NCBI GenBank assembly: GCA_002718655.1
Contig: PBFM01000006.1
Span: 1 to 61,310 of the forward strand
Direction of reading: 5' to 3'
Source of the DNA: Fidelibacterota bacterium
GTDB lineage: Bacteria; Fidelibacterota; Marinisomatia; Marinisomatales; UBA1611
Length of the DNA: 61,310 nt
Part shown: one piece after another, positions 9,959 to 19,757 of the stretch
How the letters are laid out: each line of letters starts with the position of its first letter
Position numbering within the stretch: the stretch's first letter is position 1
Program-made: the position numbers and the translations under genes
Notes under the pieces: generated by a model
What the model was told of the DNA's origin: nothing
The model's input: only the letters and a program-made list of their open reading frames with translations
Database searches by the model: none

Positions 9959-10303
9959 ATGTATTATCGCATATTTATCATATTACTGCTTTTTTCTTGC
10001 GCATCTAAATCAATACCAAAAATTTCTGTGGATCTTCCACCTACCAAAAACATGTCTCTTCAACCAATGGCTGAAACAGTTTATACATTAGGATATTTGT
10101 CAGAGTATGACATATGGGAATTCCTAAAAGGTAATCCTTCACAGAAAGATGTATTGGAAACATTTGGTTTTCCTGATTCAGTTTGGTTAGATGATCAAGA
10201 ATCAACTAAATATCTATATTATTACATTTCAAAAATTAGGGATTATAATACCATCGAGATTAGTGCTAAAACTGATAGTGTATCAGGTTTTGAATGGGAT
10301 TAA
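9959..10303 (+). CDS. Small hypothetical lipoprotein
   Basis: 114 aa. N-terminal MYYRIFIILLLFSCASKS has a lipobox-like LFSC. No recognisable domain. Confidence 0.45.
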   Translation: MYYRIFIILLLFSCASKSIPKISVDLPPTKNMSLQPMAETVYTLGYLSEYDIWEFLKGNPSQKDVLETFGFPDSVWLDDQESTKYLYYYISKIRDYNTIEISAKTDSVSGFEWD

Positions 10304-10318
10304 AGGGAAAATAAAGAA

Positions 10319-11398
10319 ATGAAACCATTAAACTATAGTGAATATTTGGGATTAGAGAATATCTTAAATAATCAAAAACTTAAAAGCGAAGAAAGGGGTT
10401 CTGCCGCACATGATGAGATGCTATTTATTATCATTCATCAAATTTACGAATTGTGGTTCAAACAAATTATCTATGAGCTAAATTCAATATTGAGAATTTT
10501 CAGTAAGGATTCTGTAATTGAATCCGATGTTAGTCTCGCTGTAATCAGATTGGATAGAATCATTGAAATCCAGAAAATTCTTATTGACCAAATAAGAGTT
10601 CTTGAAACCATGACAGCAATGGATTTCTTAGAATTCAGGGATGACCTTTTTCCTTCTTCAGGATTTCAAAGTTCTCAATTCAGAGAAATAGAAAATAAAT
10701 TGGGTCTCAAAATTGGCAATAGAATTAATTATGGAGGTAAAGACTACAAGAAAGTGATTTTAGATAAAGAGCAAAAAAAGGTTAAACGTTCAGAAGAAGA
10801 AAATTCTTTATTTGATCTACTTGAAAAATGGTTAGAAAGAACACCATTTTTATCTTTTGAAGGATTTGACTTTTGGGAACAATATAGTATTGCGGTTAAA
10901 AGAATCCTCAATAATGAAGAGCAAATTATAAGAAACAACCCTAATTATTCATTGGATGAGGTCAGTTATCATCTTAAAGAACATGAAAGAGCAGTATCTT
11001 CATTTGAAGCAATGATTAATCCTGAAAAGCACCTTGAATTAATCAAGAAAAATAAAAAACGTTTATCACACACTGCTACTCAAGCAGCGCTGCTAATTTT
11101 CCTTTATAGAGATGAGCCCATCCTTCATTCTCCATTCAACTTTTTATCTCGACTTATCGACGTTGATGAGTTACTCACTACTTGGAGGCAGAGGCATGCT
11201 CTAATGGTAAGAAGAATGATTGGAGCAAAGATAGGAACTGGTGGTTCATCAGGTCATGCATATCTAAAGGCTACAGCTGAGAATCACAAAATATTTTCTG
11301 AATTAGCAGATCTTTCAACTTTTTTCATTCAACGCTCTGCGCTTCCAAAATTACCTGAACATATAAAACGAAGCTTAGGATATCATTTTAAATTATGA
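10319..11398 (+). CDS. kynA: Tryptophan 2,3-dioxygenase
   Basis: 359 aa. Has YSEYLGLENILNNQ...HDEMLFIIIHQIYELWFKQ and C-terminal GTGGSSGHAYL, both typical of TDO. First gene of the kynurenine operon. Confidence 0.85.
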   Translation: MKPLNYSEYLGLENILNNQKLKSEERGSAAHDEMLFIIIHQIYELWFKQIIYELNSILRIFSKDSVIESDVSLAVIRLDRIIEIQKILIDQIRVLETMTAMDFLEFRDDLFPSSGFQSSQFREIENKLGLKIGNRINYGGKDYKKVILDKEQKKVKRSEEENSLFDLLEKWLERTPFLSFEGFDFWEQYSIAVKRILNNEEQIIRNNPNYSLDEVSYHLKEHERAVSSFEAMINPEKHLELIKKNKKRLSHTATQAALLIFLYRDEPILHSPFNFLSRLIDVDELLTTWRQRHALMVRRMIGAKIGTGGSSGHAYLKATAENHKIFSELADLSTFFIQRSALPKLPEHIKRSLGYHFKL

Positions 11399-12183
11399 AA
11401 TTTTCATTTGAGAATAAACGCGCCATAGTTTGCGGTGGTACTGATGGCATTGGAAAAGAAACTGCTCATATTTTAGCCAATCTTGGATGCGAAATTACTT
11501 TAGCAGCGCGTGATGTTAAAAAGTTGAATAACACGATATCAAATTTGGCAGATAATCACGGCCAATCTCATAATGTTATATGTGCAGATTTTAATAATGC
11601 AGAACAACTTGAGGAGAAAGTTCATTCACACTTGGAAAGTATTGGGAAAACTGTTGACATATTAATAAACAATTCAGGTGGGCCTCATGGGGGCCCAATT
11701 ATTCAGGCTAATGAAAATGAATTTCGCGTTGCTTTTGAACGACTACTTATAGCAAACCAAATTATGGCGAAAGCTGTTTTTCCTGGAATGAAAAAAAAAG
11801 GTTCTGGACGGATAATTAATATAATATCAACCTCAGTAAGACAGGTAATACCTGGCTTAGGTGTCTCCAATACCATTAGAGGAAGCGTGGCTCAATGGGG
11901 TAAAACGCTTGCACTAGAATTGGGTGAGTATGGAATCTGCGTTAATAATGTGTTGCCAGGATATACTGCAACTAGTAGACTAAAAGAATTAGCAAAAAAT
12001 AAGTCAAAATTATTAGGGATTAGCATTGATGAAGTTTATGCTCAATGGGAAAATAATACCTCACTAAGGCGCCTAGGAACTCCACAGGAGATTGCAAATA
12101 TAATAGTATTTTTGGCTTCTGATGCCTCTAGCTATGTTACTGGTCATAATTTTTCTGTTGATGGTGGCCGTTTTGGTGCCTGA
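11395..12183 (+). CDS. Atypical short-chain dehydrogenase/reductase family protein (catalytic Tyr/Lys positions substituted)
   Basis: Rossmann motif CGGTDGIGKE and NNSGG. By alignment from memory with E. coli FabG, the YxxxK position reads S-N-T-I-R (GVSNTIRGSVAQWGK). Start overlaps the kynA stop by 4 nt. Confidence 0.7.
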   Translation: MKFSFENKRAIVCGGTDGIGKETAHILANLGCEITLAARDVKKLNNTISNLADNHGQSHNVICADFNNAEQLEEKVHSHLESIGKTVDILINNSGGPHGGPIIQANENEFRVAFERLLIANQIMAKAVFPGMKKKGSGRIINIISTSVRQVIPGLGVSNTIRGSVAQWGKTLALELGEYGICVNNVLPGYTATSRLKELAKNKSKLLGISIDEVYAQWENNTSLRRLGTPQEIANIIVFLASDASSYVTGHNFSVDGGRFGA

Positions 12184-12272
12184 AATAAATTCTTTTAAAT
12201 AATGAATGATAATGGAGGGATTAAAGTCAATTTACACCAAAATTATGTTTGTTTTTTGCACCTAATAATCTT

Positions 12273-13718
12273 ATGAAGTTGATTCAAAACTATGTTAACG
12301 GGGAATATGTGAGTGGAACTTCAGCACATCGAATCGATTTATTTGATCCTGCAATAGGTCGTCCGTATGGCCAATTGATTGATTCAAGCATAAAGGATGT
12401 TAATGATGCAATAAACTCCTCCAAGATTGCGTTTCCACTATGGTCTTCAATGAAATTGAATAATAGAGCTAAATATCTAAATGCAATTGCAGATGAAATT
12501 GAATCTCGGGCAAATGAGTTTTCAGAAATCGAGTCAATGGATACCGGAAAGCCTATCTCCCTAGCAAATTCTTTAGATATACCAAGAGCAATTTCAAACT
12601 TTAGATTTTTTGCTGAGTATGCAAAAAAATTTGAATATATTTCAAATCTTAACGATGAAATTTCAAAAAATGAAATATCAAGAAATCCTCTTGGCGTAGT
12701 GTGTTGCATATCGCCTTGGAACCTGCCTCTTTATCTTTTTACATGGAAGATAGCCCCAGCATTGATTACGGGGAACACTGTTATAGCGAAACCATCTGAA
12801 ATCACTCCATATACTGCATACTTGCTTGGAGAAGTATGTACCAAGGTTGGATTACCCCCAGGAGTTTTGAATATCATACAAGGAAGAGGTTCAACTACTG
12901 GAGATTTCATTGTAAAAAATGAATTTATTAAAGCAATTTCATTTACCGGTGGAAGTGAAACTGGAAAGACCATTTATAAAAATGCATCCAACACATTTAA
13001 AAAATTATCCTTAGAGATGGGAGGTAAAAACCCTGCAATAATATTCCAAGACTGCGATTATAATGACACACTAGATTCAATTACTAGGTCCTCATTTCTT
13101 AATCAGGGTCAGATATGTTTATGCAGTTCCCGTCTTTTAATAGAAGAATCAATATATGATCGATTCAAAAAGGATTTCTGTGATAGAGTATCAAATTTAA
13201 AAATTGGAGACCCAATGGAGCTTGATACTCAATTTGGAGCAATATCATCTGAAGAACATTTTACCAAAATAAATAATTATATTAAATTGGCAAAAGATGA
13301 AGGGGCAAATATTCTGACTGGAGGGATAGTTGAAAGATTAAATGGAAGATGCGCTGATGGATGGTTCATAAGGCCAACTGTATTAGAAGGGTTAAGTAAT
13401 TCTTCAAGATTGAATCAGGAAGAGATTTTTGGCCCAGTTGTTACATTACAATCTTTTAATTCAGAATCAAACGCAATTAAGATGGCCAACGATACTGTCT
13501 ACGGTTTATCTGCAACGATATGGACCAAGGATAATAAAAAGGGGAAAAAAATATCAAGAAAAATTGATGCTGGAGTAATTTGGGTCAATTGTTGGTTGGT
13601 TAGAAATCTAAACACACCATTTGGTGGAATGAAACAATCTGGATTAGGACGTGAGGGTGGTAATGATGCAATCCAATTTTTTACTGAACAAAAGAATATC
13701 TGTTTATCAACAAGGTGA
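12273..13718 (+). CDS. nbaE: Aldehyde dehydrogenase, probably 2-aminomuconic semialdehyde dehydrogenase
   Basis: ALDH motifs SLEMGGKNPAIIF and catalytic-Cys region NQGQICLCSSR. Operon context with ACMSD and a RidA-type deaminase. I prefer ATG 12273 (MKLIQNYVNGEYV) to the track's TTG at 12249. Confidence 0.75.
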   Translation: MKLIQNYVNGEYVSGTSAHRIDLFDPAIGRPYGQLIDSSIKDVNDAINSSKIAFPLWSSMKLNNRAKYLNAIADEIESRANEFSEIESMDTGKPISLANSLDIPRAISNFRFFAEYAKKFEYISNLNDEISKNEISRNPLGVVCCISPWNLPLYLFTWKIAPALITGNTVIAKPSEITPYTAYLLGEVCTKVGLPPGVLNIIQGRGSTTGDFIVKNEFIKAISFTGGSETGKTIYKNASNTFKKLSLEMGGKNPAIIFQDCDYNDTLDSITRSSFLNQGQICLCSSRLLIEESIYDRFKKDFCDRVSNLKIGDPMELDTQFGAISSEEHFTKINNYIKLAKDEGANILTGGIVERLNGRCADGWFIRPTVLEGLSNSSRLNQEEIFGPVVTLQSFNSESNAIKMANDTVYGLSATIWTKDNKKGKKISRKIDAGVIWVNCWLVRNLNTPFGGMKQSGLGREGGNDAIQFFTEQKNICLSTR

Positions 13719-14074
13719 GTATAAAATACCAAAAACACATTTTTATATGCATAAATGAACGCTCTGTTCAAAATCCAAGAGGTGATTGTTTTAGGTGTGG
13801 CGGAATGGATGTAAGAATGAGGTTTGTCCAGCTAATTAATCAAAACGGATTAAAAGGTAAGGTACGTGCAAATAAAAGTGGATGCTTGGATGCCTGTGAA
13901 TTAGGTCCCGTAATTGTTATATATCCAGATAATATTTGGTATGCTAAGGTAAGAGTTGAGGATGTTGATGAGATTTTTAAGACATCTATTTTAAATAATG
14001 GAATTGTTGATAGACTGCATGTAAAAAAAGATACATGGTATTCACAAAAAAAAATGAGAGAATCAAAAAAATGA
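13715..14074 (+). CDS. Thioredoxin-like [2Fe-2S] ferredoxin
   Basis: 119 aa, GTG start inside a GTGA overlap. Cys pattern C-x12-C...C-x3-C (FICINER...GDCFRC...SGCLDACELGP) and PVIVIYPDNIWY, typical of thioredoxin-like ferredoxins. Confidence 0.7.
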   Translation: MSIKYQKHIFICINERSVQNPRGDCFRCGGMDVRMRFVQLINQNGLKGKVRANKSGCLDACELGPVIVIYPDNIWYAKVRVEDVDEIFKTSILNNGIVDRLHVKKDTWYSQKKMRESKK

Positions 14075-14484
14075 GTGACGTGATAAATGCAACTAATGCA
14101 CCCATTCCTGTTGGGAAATATCCTCATGCTAGGAAGGTTGGCAATTTACTTTTTTTATCTGGTGTTGGACCAAGAAAGCCTGGAACAAACACAATCCCAG
14201 GAGTTATGATGGACGGACAAGGTAACGTAATTGGACACGATATCGAGGCACAGTGTCACTCGGTTTTTGAAAATGTGAAAATTATTTTAGATGAATCAGG
14301 TAGTAGTTGGGATAATCTGGTGGATATAACTGTGTTTTTGACAAATATGAAAAGAGACTTTGATATTTTTAACAAGATCTATGGTGATTATTTTATCAAT
14401 AATCAACCTTGTAGGACAACTTTAGAGGTAAGATCTCTTCCTACACCAATCGCCATCGAATTGAAATGTATAGCAACAGTTTGA
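14071..14484 (+). CDS. nbaF: RidA/YjgF family deaminase, probably 2-aminomuconate deaminase
   Basis: MSDVINATNAPIPVGKYPHARKVGNLLFLSGVGPR... is RidA-like. ATG 14071 forms an ATGA overlap with the ferredoxin stop; the track's start at 14035 is an upstream extension. Confidence 0.7.
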   Translation: MSDVINATNAPIPVGKYPHARKVGNLLFLSGVGPRKPGTNTIPGVMMDGQGNVIGHDIEAQCHSVFENVKIILDESGSSWDNLVDITVFLTNMKRDFDIFNKIYGDYFINNQPCRTTLEVRSLPTPIAIELKCIATV

Positions 14485-14486
14485 GA

Positions 14487-15005
14487 ATGATGAGATTATC
14501 ACCGCCTATAGATTTTATGAAGTGGATAGATAATAATCGCCATTTACTTAAGCCTCCAGTTGGAAACAAAATCATCTATGAGGATGGGGATTTTATGATT
14601 ATGGTAATAGGAGGGCCTAATTCAAGAAAAGATTATCATGTGGATCCGGTTGAAGAATTCTTTTATCAATTGGAAGGAGATATGGTTTTGAAAATAATTG
14701 AAGATGGTAAGCGGGTTGACATACCAATCAAACAAGGTGAAATATTTTTACTTCCAAAGAAAGTACCTCATTCTCCTCAAAGAAATGATAATACAGTAGG
14801 ACTAGTTATCGAATATAAAAGAGATGAGGGAGAGTTAGATTATTTTCAATGGTACTGCGATAATTGTGATGCTTTACTTCATGAGATTAGTCTTGATCTC
14901 GAGGATATTGTTTCTCAACTGCCTCCACTCTTTAAAAAATATTGGGACGATTTAGCTTTGAGGACATGTGATCAATGTGGTGCAATCCAAGATCCACCAG
15001 AATAA
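14487..15005 (+). CDS. nbaC: 3-hydroxyanthranilate 3,4-dioxygenase
   Basis: Cupin with DYHVDPVEEFFYQLEGDM and VPHSPQR. C-terminal rubredoxin-like CDNCD...CDQCG site. ATG 14487 lies 2 nt after the RidA stop; the track's start at 14466 overlaps RidA. Confidence 0.85.
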   Translation: MMRLSPPIDFMKWIDNNRHLLKPPVGNKIIYEDGDFMIMVIGGPNSRKDYHVDPVEEFFYQLEGDMVLKIIEDGKRVDIPIKQGEIFLLPKKVPHSPQRNDNTVGLVIEYKRDEGELDYFQWYCDNCDALLHEISLDLEDIVSQLPPLFKKYWDDLALRTCDQCGAIQDPPE

Positions 15006-15012
15006 TATAATT

Positions 15013-16020
15013 TTGAAAATCGACATACACACACACATTTTACCAAAAACATGGCCAGATCTTGAGAAGAAATTTGGCTACGGAGGATGGATCAGTTTAG
15101 AGCACCATACCAAAGACTATGCCAAAATGATGAAAAATAATGAATGTTTCAGGATAATTGAATGTAATTGTTGGGATCCAGTAACTCGGATTAATGAATG
15201 TGATGAAAACAGTGTTGATTTACAGGTTCTTTCAACAGTCCCAGCAATGTTTAATTATTGGGCGAAACCAGATCATACATTATTTGTCTCAAAAATAATT
15301 AATGACCATATTGCAAAGTTAGTTGATGACTATCCAAAAAGGTTCCTTGGTTTGGGGACAATACCGATGCAGGATGGTAAACTAGCAATAAAAGAGTTAG
15401 AAAGATGTATCAAAGACTTAGGTATCTCTGGTGTTCAAATAGGCTCAAACATAAATGGTGTGAACCTTAGTGATGAATCTATTTTTCAAGTATTTGAAGC
15501 AGCCGAAGATCTTGGTGCGTCAATATTCATACACCCTTGGGATATAATGGGGAGAAATGAAACAAAAAAGTACTGGCTACCATGGCTAGTTGGTATGCCT
15601 GCTGAAACTAGTAGAGCAATTTGTTCAATGATTTTTGGTGGAGTATTTGAAAGATTACCTAATCTAAGGGTCGCTTTTGCGCATGGTGGCGGAGCATTTC
15701 CTGCGACAATTGGAAGAATACAACATGGATTTGATGTAAGACCTGATCTTTGTGCAATTGATAATGATACCCCTCCCATCGATTATTTAGGAAAATTCTG
15801 GGTAGACTCATTAGTTCACGATATTGAAATCCTTGATTATATAATCAAAAAAATAGGTGATGAAAAAATTGTTTTAGGCTCGGACTATCCATTTCCACTT
15901 GGTGAAGATAACCCTGGAATTATGATAAAAAACTCTAATCTTCCAGAAATAACAAAAGAAAAGATTTTTCATAAGAATGCATTGGACTGGTTAGGAATTG
16001 AACACAATTCGTCAGAATGA
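15013..16020 (+). CDS. nbaD: 2-amino-3-carboxymuconate-6-semialdehyde decarboxylase (ACMSD)
   Basis: KIDIHTHILPKTWPDL, FAHGGGAFP and GSDYPFPLGE motifs. An in-frame TTG at 15013 gives the canonical MKIDIHTH N-terminus and avoids the 38-nt overlap implied by ATG 14968. Confidence 0.85.
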   Translation: MKIDIHTHILPKTWPDLEKKFGYGGWISLEHHTKDYAKMMKNNECFRIIECNCWDPVTRINECDENSVDLQVLSTVPAMFNYWAKPDHTLFVSKIINDHIAKLVDDYPKRFLGLGTIPMQDGKLAIKELERCIKDLGISGVQIGSNINGVNLSDESIFQVFEAAEDLGASIFIHPWDIMGRNETKKYWLPWLVGMPAETSRAICSMIFGGVFERLPNLRVAFAHGGGAFPATIGRIQHGFDVRPDLCAIDNDTPPIDYLGKFWVDSLVHDIEILDYIIKKIGDEKIVLGSDYPFPLGEDNPGIMIKNSNLPEITKEKIFHKNALDWLGIEHNSSE

Positions 16021-17264
16021 TACATAATAAATCAAGAACTTATGCAGAGTTGATGGATCAAAGAGATAGTCTAAATGGATACCGTAATCTATTTAATTAT
16101 CCAAAAAATAATACTGGTGACCCCTTGATATATTTCTGTGGCAATTCTCTAGGACTGCAACCAAAAGCAGCATTTTCACAAATAAAAAAAGAATTCTCTG
16201 TTTGGTCAAATAAAGGCGTTTTAGGGCAGGATAGCAGATGGATTCCTTACCACGAGAGAATGACCAAGACTTCTGCAAAATTAGTTGGTGCAAAAGAAAC
16301 TGAAGTTGTTGTAATGAATGCATTAACTGTGAATATTCATTTATTACTAATATCATTTTATCAGCCTAGTAAAAAAAGACATAAAGTAATAATGGAGAAA
16401 GATGCTTTTCCATCCGATCAATATGCGATAAAAAGCCAGGTTGAATTACATGGCTATGATCCCAAAAATTCAATTATTGAAATCTCACCAAGGGATAAAG
16501 AGAAAATAATCAGAGAAAAAGATATTATTAGTTCAATTATTGAAAATAGAGATGAACTAGCACTGATATATATTGGGGGTGTTAATTATTATACTGGACA
16601 AGTATTTAATATGGAAAAAATATCTAAGGTAGCTAAGGAAAATAATATTACAATCGGTTTCAACCTTGCTCATGCAGCCGGGAATATTCCACTTTCTTTA
16701 CATGACTGGGAGGTTGATTTTTCATCATGGTGTACTTATAAGTATCTATGCGGTGGTCCAGGTTCACCTGCAGGAACTTTCATACATGAAAATCACCATG
16801 ATTGGAAAGGACCTAGATTAACAGGTTGGTGGGGACATAACAAAAAATCAAGATTTGAAATGCCTTCATCATTCGATCCAATACCTACATCTGAAGCATG
16901 GCAGATAAGTAATGCTCCAATTATGGGCATGGCTCCATTAATTGTTGCAATGGATATGTTTGACAAGGTTGGAATGGATAATATCCGTGAAAAAAGTATT
17001 CAATTAACCTCCTATTTGCAGTATTTAATTGAATGTTTTCTACCCTCCGTTAAAATCATTACACCAGATTCTAGAGGCTGTCAGTTATCAATTATTGTTC
17101 CAAACGGGAGAAAAATTTTCAATTTTCTCAATCAAAATGATGTGGTGTGTGATTGGAGAAATCCTGATGTGATTCGCGTTGCACCACATCCCCTATTCAA
17201 TACCTATGTTGAGGTTTATGAATTTATACAAATAATGAAAAAAGCAATTGAACAAGAAACATAA
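16017..17264 (+). CDS. kynU: Kynureninase
   Basis: 415 aa. FCGNSLGLQPK, PLP-Lys region WCTYKYLCGGPGS, RLTGWWGH. ATGA overlap with the ACMSD stop. Confidence 0.9.
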   Translation: MIHNKSRTYAELMDQRDSLNGYRNLFNYPKNNTGDPLIYFCGNSLGLQPKAAFSQIKKEFSVWSNKGVLGQDSRWIPYHERMTKTSAKLVGAKETEVVVMNALTVNIHLLLISFYQPSKKRHKVIMEKDAFPSDQYAIKSQVELHGYDPKNSIIEISPRDKEKIIREKDIISSIIENRDELALIYIGGVNYYTGQVFNMEKISKVAKENNITIGFNLAHAAGNIPLSLHDWEVDFSSWCTYKYLCGGPGSPAGTFIHENHHDWKGPRLTGWWGHNKKSRFEMPSSFDPIPTSEAWQISNAPIMGMAPLIVAMDMFDKVGMDNIREKSIQLTSYLQYLIECFLPSVKIITPDSRGCQLSIIVPNGRKIFNFLNQNDVVCDWRNPDVIRVAPHPLFNTYVEVYEFIQIMKKAIEQET

Positions 17265-18579
17265 AATTACAATCATAGGTTCTGGTTTAGCTGGACCATT
17301 GATGGCATCATATTTATCACAGAGAGGTTATGAAGTAAACATTTATGAGAAACGTCAAGATATGCGTATTCATAAACAATCTGCTGGGCGTTCAATAAAT
17401 CTCGCACTTTCGAAAAGAGGTATAGATTCCTTAAAGGATATTGGCTTGTATGATAAGGTTCGGTCAAAGATGTTACCAATGGCTGGGCGTATGATACATG
17501 ATATTGATGGTAAACAACACATGCAAAGATATGGTCAAAAAAATAATGAGGTTATTTACTCCATATCTAGATCATTTCTGAATAAAGTTCTCATTGACCA
17601 TGCTGAAAGCAAACCTAATGTTCAAATATTTTTCAATCAAAAATTGATTGAAGTTGAACTAAATAAATCTAAACTAATTTTTAATGAGGAAAGAAAAATT
17701 GTACCTTTTGAAATATTATTTGGGAGTGATGGATCTGCATCACCAGTAAGAAATTCAATGGAGGAAATTTCTTCAATAAATTTTAGAAAAATTCCACTTG
17801 ATCACGGATACAAAGAAATAAACATGCCACCAGATCTGGCAGGGAATTATCGTATGAATCCCAATGCATTGCATATATGGCCAAGAGGAAATTTCATGTT
17901 GATTGCACTACCAAACACTGACCATAGTTTTACATGTACTTTATTTTTTCCAATGCTAGGTGAATTAAGTTTTTCTTCAATAGATTCAGAAAATAAAATT
18001 ATAGAATTTTTCAAAATGCAATTTCCTGACATTATCGAAATGTTACCTAATCTTGTAGAAGATTATAAAAACAATCCTACAGGCAAACTTGCAACAGTAT
18101 ATTGTGATAAATGGAATTACAAAGGTAAGGCTCTAATATTTGGTGATGCAGCCCACGCAATAGTACCATTTTTTGGACAAGGCATGAATGCTTCTTTTCA
18201 AGATTGTAAAGTAATTGATCAAATGATTGAAAAGTATGAAGGGGACTGGAATGAGGTTTTCTCAAACTTTACCAAGAACCACAAACCTAATGGGCATGCG
18301 ATTGCTAATATGGCACTTGAGAATTATATAGAAATGAGAGGCTTGGTTAATGATGAAGGCTATATCAAAAAAAGGGAACTTGAGCTTAAACTTGAACTAG
18401 AATTTCCAAATAGATTTTTACCTAGATATTCTATGGTCTCATTTCATTCCTTACCTTATTCGGAGGTCTACAAAAGGGGAGAGATACAATCGAAATTAAT
18501 GGATGAATTCTTAGCGGGAAAAATCAATCAACAAGAATTGAAAGGCAAAATATTAAAAAAATTGGAAACCATTCTTTGA
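17248..18579 (+). CDS. kmo: Kynurenine 3-monooxygenase
   Basis: FAD fold KITIIGSGLAGPLMASYLSQRGYEVNIYEKR and FGDAAHAIVPFFGQGMN. TTG start overlapping the kynU end. Confidence 0.85.
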   Translation: MNKKHKITIIGSGLAGPLMASYLSQRGYEVNIYEKRQDMRIHKQSAGRSINLALSKRGIDSLKDIGLYDKVRSKMLPMAGRMIHDIDGKQHMQRYGQKNNEVIYSISRSFLNKVLIDHAESKPNVQIFFNQKLIEVELNKSKLIFNEERKIVPFEILFGSDGSASPVRNSMEEISSINFRKIPLDHGYKEINMPPDLAGNYRMNPNALHIWPRGNFMLIALPNTDHSFTCTLFFPMLGELSFSSIDSENKIIEFFKMQFPDIIEMLPNLVEDYKNNPTGKLATVYCDKWNYKGKALIFGDAAHAIVPFFGQGMNASFQDCKVIDQMIEKYEGDWNEVFSNFTKNHKPNGHAIANMALENYIEMRGLVNDEGYIKKRELELKLELEFPNRFLPRYSMVSFHSLPYSEVYKRGEIQSKLMDEFLAGKINQQELKGKILKKLETIL

Positions 18580-19757
18580 AAAAGTTTAAAATCATTTTTT
18601 CAACATTTATTTTATTACTAGCTATGTCATGTGAAAAAGATTCAATGAGTATTCATGATAAAGCTTTTGTTGTTGATACACATAATGATGTACTACTTCG
18701 TTCACTGACAGGGCGTGACATTCTTAAAAATCTACCTGAGAGCCATTCAGACTTACCAAAATTTAGGCAGGGAGGCATAGATCTTCAGGTGTTCTCAATT
18801 TGGGTGTCTCCGACAGAATTCAAAGATGCATATTATGCTCGCGCAAACTATATTATATCTCAACTAGAATTTCTTTGTTCAAGAGTTCCAGATAAATGGT
18901 CTATCCCGCATAATTACCAAGATATTATTTACAATGAACAACGAGGTGTACTTTCATGCATGATTGGTGTAGAGGGAGGCCATGTAATAGAAAATGATTT
19001 AAATAAAATTGATGAATTGCATAAAAGAGGCATGAGATATTTGGGTGTGACCTGGAATAATTCTAATGAATGGGCAACATCAGCAAAAGATGAGACTCAA
19101 GCTAAACAATCCTTAGATTTCATTGGACTAACTGAATTTGGGGAGAAAGTGATTCAAAGGTGTAATAAGCTTGGGGTAATCGTAGATATTTCGCACGCTG
19201 GTGAGCAAACTGTCAGTGATATTTTAAGGGTAACTGAAAAGCCAATCATAGCTTCGCATTCTTCAGTGTATGATTTATGCCCTCATTATAGAAATCTAAA
19301 AGATGATCAATTATTAGCCATTAGGGAAAATGGTGGTGTTGTATTTGTAAACTTTTACCCTGGATATATTGATTCCACATTTGAAAATAAAGCAAGAAAT
19401 ATACGTCAATTAAATAGTTCATCTTTAGACTCCATATCAAAACTATATAAGCAAGATTCTGATTCTCATTGGTACAAAACTAATGAAATATTAGCACCTC
19501 ACCTTCAAAAAGTTGCTCCTGGGATTGATGATGTTGTTAAACATATTGATTACATAGTCGATCTAATTGGCATAGATCATGTTGGCATTGGTGGTGATTG
19601 GGATGGAGTGGAAATCTTGCCTTCAGGGATAGAGCACATTGGAAAAATGCCGCTTTTAACAAAAAAACTTCTTAATAGGGGTTACTCGATAAGTGATTTG
19701 AAAAAAATTCTAGGAGGGAATTTTAAAAGAGTTTTTAAAGAGGTCAATCATCTGTGA
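18576..19757 (+). CDS. Membrane dipeptidase (peptidase M19, renal dipeptidase family), lipoprotein
   Basis: Signal/lipobox LLLAMSC, then VVDTHNDVL, VDISHAG and GIGGDWDG motifs. TTG start in a TTGA overlap with the kmo stop. Confidence 0.8.
   Translation: MKKFKIIFSTFILLLAMSCEKDSMSIHDKAFVVDTHNDVLLRSLTGRDILKNLPESHSDLPKFRQGGIDLQVFSIWVSPTEFKDAYYARANYIISQLEFLCSRVPDKWSIPHNYQDIIYNEQRGVLSCMIGVEGGHVIENDLNKIDELHKRGMRYLGVTWNNSNEWATSAKDETQAKQSLDFIGLTEFGEKVIQRCNKLGVIVDISHAGEQTVSDILRVTEKPIIASHSSVYDLCPHYRNLKDDQLLAIRENGGVVFVNFYPGYIDSTFENKARNIRQLNSSSLDSISKLYKQDSDSHWYKTNEILAPHLQKVAPGIDDVVKHIDYIVDLIGIDHVGIGGDWDGVEILPSGIEHIGKMPLLTKKLLNRGYSISDLKKILGGNFKRVFKEVNHL

Follow-up and report, generated by a model that had tools for sequence, protein, structure and literature searches.

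A tyrosine-less short-chain dehydrogenase/reductase linked to bacterial kynurenine operons is a candidate 2-oxohex-3-enedioate reductase

The window analysed here is a 61,310-nt stretch (contig PBFM01000006.1, positions 1–61,310) from a metagenome-assembled genome (MAG; 2.1 Mb, 80 % complete) of a Fidelibacterota bacterium (GCA_002718655.1), and the gene in question encodes an SDR (short-chain dehydrogenase/reductase) at 11395–12183, within an operon for tryptophan degradation by the kynurenine pathway (Table 1). At NCBI, proteins closely related to those of the window are listed under Candidatus Neomarinimicrobiota (Marinimicrobia/SAR406). The SDR lacks the catalytic Tyr and Lys of its superfamily, and in many bacteria of sea and soil its orthologues keep company with the aldehyde dehydrogenase (ALDH) assigned as 2-aminomuconate-6-semialdehyde dehydrogenase. 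We consider it probable that the SDR acts as a reductase within the catabolic branch, at a point downstream of this ALDH, and, more guardedly, we lean towards a role as an NADPH ene-reductase that converts 2-oxohex-3-enedioate (deaminated 2-aminomuconate) to 2-oxoadipate. An earlier sequence-only reading had proposed the SDR as the missing reductase at this point of the pathway; linkage, co-occurrence, the failure to find the known bacterial lower pathway and a relationship to AerF support that proposal as the leading hypothesis. The protein is a candidate for this function: its sequence features, family relationships, gene neighbourhood and co-occurrence are observed, and from them we infer substrate, product, cofactor preference and residue roles.

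The SDR returned Pfam matches to adh_short_C2 (PF13561, 1.2e-44) and adh_short (6.6e-34); only SDR families were matched, with no sign of the aspartate dehydrogenase fold (ASPDH type). As had been described from the sequence, the dinucleotide fold is kept: the glycine-rich motif (GGTDGIGKE, of the TGxxxGxG type) and NNSGG (corresponding to NNAG) are intact, placing the protein in the classical SDR superfamily, and the AlphaFold (AF2) model built from a 40-sequence alignment has the alternating β/α pattern with a pLDDT of 96.4. Arg39, which follows β2, is invariant in the SDR orthologues. A basic residue at this position is typical of NADP-preferring SDRs, pointing to a possible preference for NADPH.

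The catalytic residues are another matter. When the SDR was aligned with canonical YxxxK SDRs of related genomes, the positions of the Asn-Ser-Tyr-Lys tetrad were found to be occupied by Leu, Ser, Ser158 and Arg162, respectively, leaving the catalytic Ser as the sole residue retained. HMMER alignments to solved structures gave the same register (AerF, S...N; TM1169 and 5va8, SNxxR), and neither profile nor structure-aware alignments restored a YxxxK motif; hence the replacement of Tyr and Lys by Ser and Arg, first proposed by comparison with FabG, holds. Among ~135 full-length sequences, each standing for a 50 %-identity cluster and reaching down to ~34 % identity, nearly all have S-N-x-x-R, and Ser158, Asn159, Arg162 and Arg195 are 99–100 % conserved in the orthologue clade (96 members). 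This conservation across the family indicates that the replacement is a family character, not the product of chance or decay. With its G-G-P and PG-x3-T-x-R elements, the SDR belongs to a Tyr-less S-N-x-x-R subgroup. In a long form of the protein (P0127, 428 aa) no N-terminal domain could be recognised and there is hence no informative fusion, while the 50 %-identity representative P0123 lies on a 1.1-kb contig that carries no neighbourhood information. A tblastn search of the SDR against its own genome revealed no paralogue at E < 1e-8. No other SDR, not even FabG, was detected in the assembly by this search at the same threshold; either the missing 20 % holds the genes for fatty-acid synthesis or the lineage is unusually SDR-poor.

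The four best sequence matches among solved structures all lack the Tyr: AerF (6JH7, 1.6e-34), TM1169, the Burkholderia SDR 5VA8 and APE0912. AerF was ranked top by both phmmer and Foldseek, with the NADPH- and ligand-bound entries 6jhb and 6jha at ranks 1–2 (TM 0.93), while BacG/YwfH was found at fold rank 5 and with a sequence match of 2e-24. The closest relationship is thus to the AerF/BacG-type SDR ene-reductases, by small margins over other SDRs. AerF (Microcystis aeruginosa; PDB 6JH7/6JHA/6JHB), from the biosynthesis of Choi/aeruginosin, likewise has Ser at the catalytic-Tyr position and a PG-x3-T-x-R loop. It is described as a reductase that uses NADPH on an alkenal double bond, with a 2-oxo acid that has a conjugated C=C as its substrate (PMC13256417; PMC10143770 ref. 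59). AerF differs from the SDR in that it serves secondary metabolism, acts on a cyclic substrate and has no linkage to kynurenine genes. BacG/YwfH of Bacillus subtilis (PDB 3U49/3U4C) is also an NADPH reductase SDR on a 2-oxo acid, although more distant (25 % identity in the fold alignment), and is described as turning an H2HPP-type 2-oxo-acid intermediate into an H4HPP-type one in bacilysin synthesis (PMC9147277). The structural-genomics proteins TM1169 (1O5I), APE0912 (2Z1N) and the Burkholderia SDRs (5VA8, 5VPS and 5IDX) display the same S-N-x-x-R (E 1e-28 to 1e-34), with NADP(H) bound in several entries. However, both they and the SNxxR paralogues from Marinimicrobia fall outside the kynurenine-linked clade, and the structural-genomics proteins are without the clade-specific residues His59, Thr146, Ser147, Gly156-Val157, Thr160, Trp168 and Asn185. 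We read the SDR as an AerF-like Tyr-less SDR, probably recruited to primary metabolism.

In the mechanism that we propose, the SDR would act after the ALDH and the RidA-type deaminase in the catabolic branch of the kynurenine pathway. The NADPH hydride would be delivered to C4 of 2-oxohex-3-enedioate (4-oxalocrotonate) and C3 would be protonated next to yield 2-oxoadipate, with Ser145, Ser158, Asn159 and Arg162, together with Arg195 on the substrate loop, holding and polarising the substrate at its 2-oxo-acid end and stabilising the enolate there. Since protonation of a carbon needs no Tyr/Lys acid-base pair, whereas carbonyl reduction does, such a reaction would explain how the pair could come to be lost, and it would match the chemistry of AerF and BacG. 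2-Oxoadipate would then proceed to glutaryl-CoA and glutaryl-CoA dehydrogenase (GCDH), bypassing the decarboxylase, hydratase and aldolase steps known from Burkholderia.

The replaced residues also bear on whether the SDR might serve the pathway by some other chemistry, be it the carbonyl reduction of 2-oxoadipate or 2-oxohexenedioate to a 2-hydroxy acid or the clearing of a reactive by-product of the unstable semialdehydes. Loss of the tetrad argues against ordinary carbonyl reduction in SDRs, and here Ser alone is left of N-S-Y-K; moreover, no downstream enzymes for a 2-hydroxy acid recur in the clusters, and the SDR is absent from genomes that have 3-hydroxyanthranilate 3,4-dioxygenase (HAO) without the ALDH, which also form reactive intermediates. 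Carbonyl reductases do make up the majority of SDRs, the linkage data leave the reaction unspecified, and the retention of the SDR in genomes with only tryptophan 2,3-dioxygenase (TDO) or kynureninase (KYNU) could mean a wider substrate range. Taken together, we regard such a chemistry as improbable.

Gene neighbourhood supports the assignment to the pathway. In a tree of 104 sequences, the SDR orthologues form one clade (support 100, stem 0.73) apart from other SNxxR and YxxxK SDRs. Within the same order, 24/41 genomes possess an orthologue (at least 45 % identity), and in 17 of the 23 other genomes that do so the gene lies directly 3′ of TDO, usually 5′ of the ALDH. When one genome per species was scanned, 80 further orthologue loci (45–56 % identity) were obtained, from Flavobacteriaceae, Hymenobacteraceae, Chitinophagaceae, Saprospiraceae, Ignavibacteria, Methylocaldum, Alteromonadaceae, Bdellovibrio and others, and the SDR is flanked by kynurenine genes (HAO, ACMSD, aminomuconate-semialdehyde dehydrogenase, RidA, KYNU or kynurenine 3-monooxygenase, KMO) in 52/80 of these. 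The linked loci span Bacteroidota, Ignavibacteriota, Pseudomonadota and Bdellovibrionota and show at least four gene orders: KYNU-KMO-RidA-ALDH-SDR-HAO-ACMSD in Flavobacteriaceae; ACMSD-HAO divergent from SDR-ALDH-RidA-KYNU-KMO in Chitinophagaceae; SDR-ALDH-RidA-HAO-ACMSD in Methylocaldum; TDO-SDR-x-ALDH in Ignavibacteria; and bare SDR-ALDH pairs in Bdellovibrio and Alteromonadaceae. The SDR is thus a conserved neighbour of the kynurenine catabolic cluster across distant taxa. The ALDH is its most constant neighbour, ALDH and HAO being the closest, and clustering of all flanking open reading frames (ORFs) revealed no other enzyme family that recurs in the SDR loci.

Co-occurrence points the same way. 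We searched 151 Flavobacteriales genomes, requested at a completeness of at least 90 %, and detected HAO in 88, an SDR orthologue in 75 and an ALDH orthologue in 73. The SDR and the ALDH were found together in 70 genomes, the SDR alone in 5, the ALDH alone in 3 and neither in 73, counts that overstate independence as the genomes are related and in which some absences may be false, since only 17 SDR candidates were scored in the largest genomes. HAO was present without the SDR in 17 genomes. Of these, 14 also lack the ALDH, the pattern expected of a pathway used for NAD only, indicating that the SDR tracks the catabolic branch and not NAD synthesis. The linkage to kynurenine genes that the sequence-only reading depended upon is therefore upheld across phyla and in differing gene orders, and the match with the ALDH is near one-to-one in this order.

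That reading had also described an operon with the deaminase but without the decarboxylase branch, which is correct in part. An ACMSD-type decarboxylase is encoded in the operon (14968–16020); however, 4-oxalocrotonate decarboxylase, hydratase and aldolase were searched for in the window's 80 %-complete genome and none was found (no DmpG for the aldolase); 4-OT was not found either. The operon itself (10319–19757) carries none of the three genes, nor one for kynurenine formamidase. The sole FAA-hydrolase of the genome adjoins 4-HPPD in a homogentisate cluster. Neither the 151 Flavobacteriales nor five further genomes that bear the cluster yielded a DmpG aldolase. With the lower pathway of the Burkholderia cenocepacia type (deaminase, 4-oxalocrotonate decarboxylase, hydratase and aldolase), the pathway here shares its upper steps and the deaminase. 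The last three enzymes were not found in the window's genome, and apart from the SDR no extra enzyme recurs in the clusters. GCDH, in contrast, is encoded there (1.7e-140 to 2EBA) and also in four cluster-bearing Bacteroidota. These genomes would thus make 2-aminomuconate and its deamination product; the known consuming route was not found in them, and they encode GCDH, the enzyme that follows 2-oxoadipate. The SDR is the only unexplained pathway-linked enzyme. Of the two downstream enzymes that had been named as worth looking for, GCDH is therefore accounted for, but 2-oxoadipate dehydrogenase was not identified in the MAG. The genome does encode two 2-oxo-acid dehydrogenase proteins of the fused E1 alpha/beta kind (737 aa and ~672 aa; L040:12040-14253 and G000:C3:8972-9865), and the fused E1 protein ~4 kb from the GCDH gene could be the 2-oxoadipate dehydrogenase. 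The neighbourhood of the GCDH gene contained no pathway genes.

RidA proteins hydrolyse 2-imino acids, which opens a different order of events: the SDR may reduce 2-aminomuconate (as the enamine or imine) before deamination, giving 2-iminoadipate for hydrolysis to 2-oxoadipate by RidA, or else giving an amino acid (2-aminoadipate or 2-aminohex-3-enedioate, the latter as with human ASPDH). The neighbourhood and co-occurrence data apply equally to this order. The tightest partner of the SDR is the very ALDH that produces 2-aminomuconate, with SDR-ALDH standing alone in Bdellovibrio and an Alteromonadaceae MAG, and RidA was detected in ~20 linked loci only. Nevertheless, we consider direct reduction of 2-aminomuconate unlikely: the solved relatives act on 2-oxo acids, the window's operon has a RidA of the type assigned as 2-aminomuconate deaminase, and the clusters show no recurrent transaminase or other enzyme that would handle an amino-acid product.

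Direct reduction does have a precedent in animals. The sequence-only reading had stated that the animal gene was not firmly identified, which is now outdated, as human ASPDH has been proposed as a 2-aminomuconate reductase with L-2-aminohex-3-enedioate as its product, and in fungi a RidA-type deaminase is found instead of ASPDH (2026 preprint, bioRxiv 10.64898/2026.06.05.730449). ASPDH likewise performs an NAD(P)H reduction just past 2-aminomuconate, and it was likewise found through co-evolution with pathway genes. It differs in its fold, which is of the unrelated aspartate dehydrogenase family, and in its product, which is not 2-oxoadipate; furthermore, ASPDH and the RidA-type deaminase are mutually exclusive in eukaryotes, whereas the window's operon has RidA and the SDR together. 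With regard to fungi and bacteria, it has been written that reduction of 2-oxo-3-hexenedioate 'may' occur, and an SDR is syntenic with 3-HAA clusters of fungi (PMC7842363). Our search of the literature, outside of which most subscription journals fell, found no named 2-oxohex-3-enedioate, 4-oxalocrotonate or 2-hydroxymuconate reductase.

Several observations weigh against the favoured reading. Orthologues occur in genomes without the lower pathway. Two Marinimicrobia genomes (G006 and G020; 97 % and 92 % complete) encode an intact SDR but no TDO, HAO, KYNU or ALDH, with the order lipoprotein-P5C reductase-SDR-dipeptidase. A third (G019, 99 % complete) has retained TDO-SDR-ferredoxin only, G031 has SDR-QPRT-KYNU without the lower pathway, and Pedobacter sp. 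KBW06 and a Flavipsychrobacter MAG have an orthologue and no HAO. Persistence of the SDR without the lower pathway implies that the enzyme can have another use. AerF, moreover, is only ~31–34 % identical to the SDR and has Asn (S-G-V-V-N) at the Lys position where the SDR has Arg (S-N-T-I-R), while the fold ranking is weak, and supportive at most, since all classical SDRs superpose at TM ~0.9. GCDH is found in 32/41 genomes of the order regardless of kynurenine genes and is therefore compatible with the proposed route, not diagnostic of it. For the conversion of 2-oxoadipate to glutaryl-CoA, the 80 %-complete genome returned neither a sucA-type E1 (OxoGdeHyase_C) nor a POR (POR_N). Finally, the order of deamination and reduction is not readable from the sequence.

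The same pathway-less orthologues would suit a general housekeeping reductase that lies near kynurenine genes through inherited gene order only: the SDR still occupies its chromosomal slot where the kynurenine genes have been lost (G006/G020, G014 and G019) and is unlinked, with uninformative neighbours, in Pedobacter, Flavipsychrobacter and Crocinitomicaceae. Against such a role stand the linkage, which outlasts rearrangement across at least four phyla, and the 70/5/3/73 distribution with the ALDH in Flavobacteriales. In addition, HAO is encoded elsewhere in the genome in 3/5 of the 'unlinked' genomes, and branches are longer where the pathway has been lost (0.52 for G019; 0.43 for the G006/G020 stem), which fits relaxed or changed selection. 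We judge a housekeeping role very improbable. The neighbours of the unlinked orthologues in Pedobacter, Flavipsychrobacter and a Bacteroidetes MAG (protease, rhodanese, cytochrome c and GNAT) suggested no alternative pathway.

The window's operon belongs to a row of eleven genes (9959–19757) that run in one direction and for the most part overlap (Table 1). As first noted from the sequence, the SDR gene overlaps the kynA stop, its ATG (11395–11397) and the TGA of TDO (11396–11398) being read as ATGA.

Table 1. Genes of the kynurenine row in the window (positions are those of the window)
Feature	Position	Strand	Basis and remarks
Predicted small lipoprotein, 114 aa, first of the row	9959..10303	+	No Pfam match; kept 5′ of TDO or SDR in relatives
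Tryptophan 2,3-dioxygenase (kynA, TDO)	10319..11398	+	PF03301, 1.1e-103
Tyr/Lys-less SDR (Ser158, Asn159, Arg162), candidate NADPH 2-oxohex-3-enedioate / 2-aminomuconate reductase	11395..12183	+	262 aa, open
Aldehyde dehydrogenase (ALDH), assigned 2-aminomuconate-6-semialdehyde dehydrogenase	12249..13718	+	PF00171, 1.2e-159; likely start ATG 12273; top NCBIfam match 2-hydroxymuconic semialdehyde dehydrogenase, 538 bits, under cut-off
Thioredoxin-like 2Fe-2S ferredoxin	13715..14074	+	NF041612, 2.7e-22, under cut-off
RidA-family protein, assigned 2-aminomuconate deaminase by context	14035..14484	+	PF01042, 1.6e-25
3-Hydroxyanthranilate 3,4-dioxygenase (HAO)	14466..15005	+	NF009763, 265 bits, over cut-off
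ACMSD-type decarboxylase (Amidohydro_2), assigned by context	14968..16020	+	PF04909, 1.4e-42
Kynureninase (KYNU)	16017..17264	+	TIGR01814, 423 bits, over cut-off
Kynurenine 3-monooxygenase-like flavoprotein (KMO-like)	17248..18579	+	Top NCBIfam match VioC-like, under cut-off; orthologues in kynurenine clusters
M19 membrane dipeptidase, conserved downstream border of the locus	18576..19757	+	PF01244, 6.6e-100

The lipoprotein and the M19 dipeptidase persist as borders of the slot when it has been emptied of kynurenine genes; in such slots the neighbour of the SDR is a P5C-reductase-like gene (G006/G020; L043:8220-9029) or a GMC oxidoreductase (G014; L044:2780-4351). With regard to the missing formamidase, a single KynB-type Cyclase-family ORF was detected in the assembly, on another contig (G000:C42:15090-15473) and with a weak score of 44.5 bits. 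A lone divergent TDO (53 % identity; L128:7473-8564) was found in G017, in an unrelated neighbourhood and with no SDR, HAO or ALDH orthologue in that genome.

The 2Fe-2S ferredoxin gene sits between the ALDH and RidA genes inside the kynurenine operon. In G019 it has survived alongside TDO and the SDR although every other pathway gene has gone, and in G031 it is found close to SDR-QPRT-KYNU, whereas no ferredoxin homologue was detected in the 80 SDR loci from other phyla; an in-operon ferredoxin was thus found in Marinimicrobia only. Our guesses as to its role are the reduction of the TDO haem or of the HAO iron. From the arrangement in G019 one might suppose that the SDR works for TDO or for the ferredoxin, which we rejected as a general role because the 80 loci are without the ferredoxin, TDO lies near the SDR in only five of them, and ALDH and HAO are the usual neighbours.

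In six relatives (L011, L012, L015, L016, L019 and L020), nadC (QPRT) is positioned between the SDR and the ALDH; in G011, QPRT lies immediately 5′ of the ALDH (L045:41-685). In these QPRT-bearing relatives the operon feeds both NAD synthesis and catabolism. A role for the SDR in NAD synthesis, as the adjacency might suggest, was rejected given that genomes with HAO but no ALDH are without the SDR. A QPRT gene was not detected in any part of the genome of the window, which is 80 % complete. In the Flavobacteriaceae loci (L049-L103) the gene at this position is ~25 % identical to the ACMSD of the window, while the type in Cytophagales and Chitinophagales is ~60 % identical to it; the slot appears to be taken by either of two Amidohydro_2 lineages that are very divergent. 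An O-methyltransferase (PF01596) is positioned 3′ of the cluster in 16 loci.

The passage of tryptophan carbon from 2-aminomuconate on to 2-oxoadipate and then to glutaryl-CoA has been an open question for decades, with the animal step assigned only in a 2026 preprint, and a single 262-aa protein that is near one-to-one with the pathway ALDH makes the question testable with one recombinant enzyme. On balance, we favour the view that the SDR clade reduces 2-oxohex-3-enedioate (or 2-aminomuconate) to 2-oxoadipate, a step to which no gene has yet been assigned in any organism. A third bacterial route from tryptophan to glutaryl-CoA, reductive and 'eukaryote-like', would thereby be defined in much of the Flavobacteriales, Cytophagales and Chitinophagales and in marine Marinimicrobia, and the widespread Tyr-less S-N-x-x-R SDRs would receive their first physiological role in primary metabolism. 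If this is true, the pathway as reconstructed for Flavobacteriales and SAR406/Marinimicrobia, which are abundant heterotrophs of the sea, would be corrected, a family of Tyr-less SDRs known from structural genomics would gain a function, and a small NADPH ene-reductase for 2-oxo-enoates would become available, with possible use in the production of adipate precursors.

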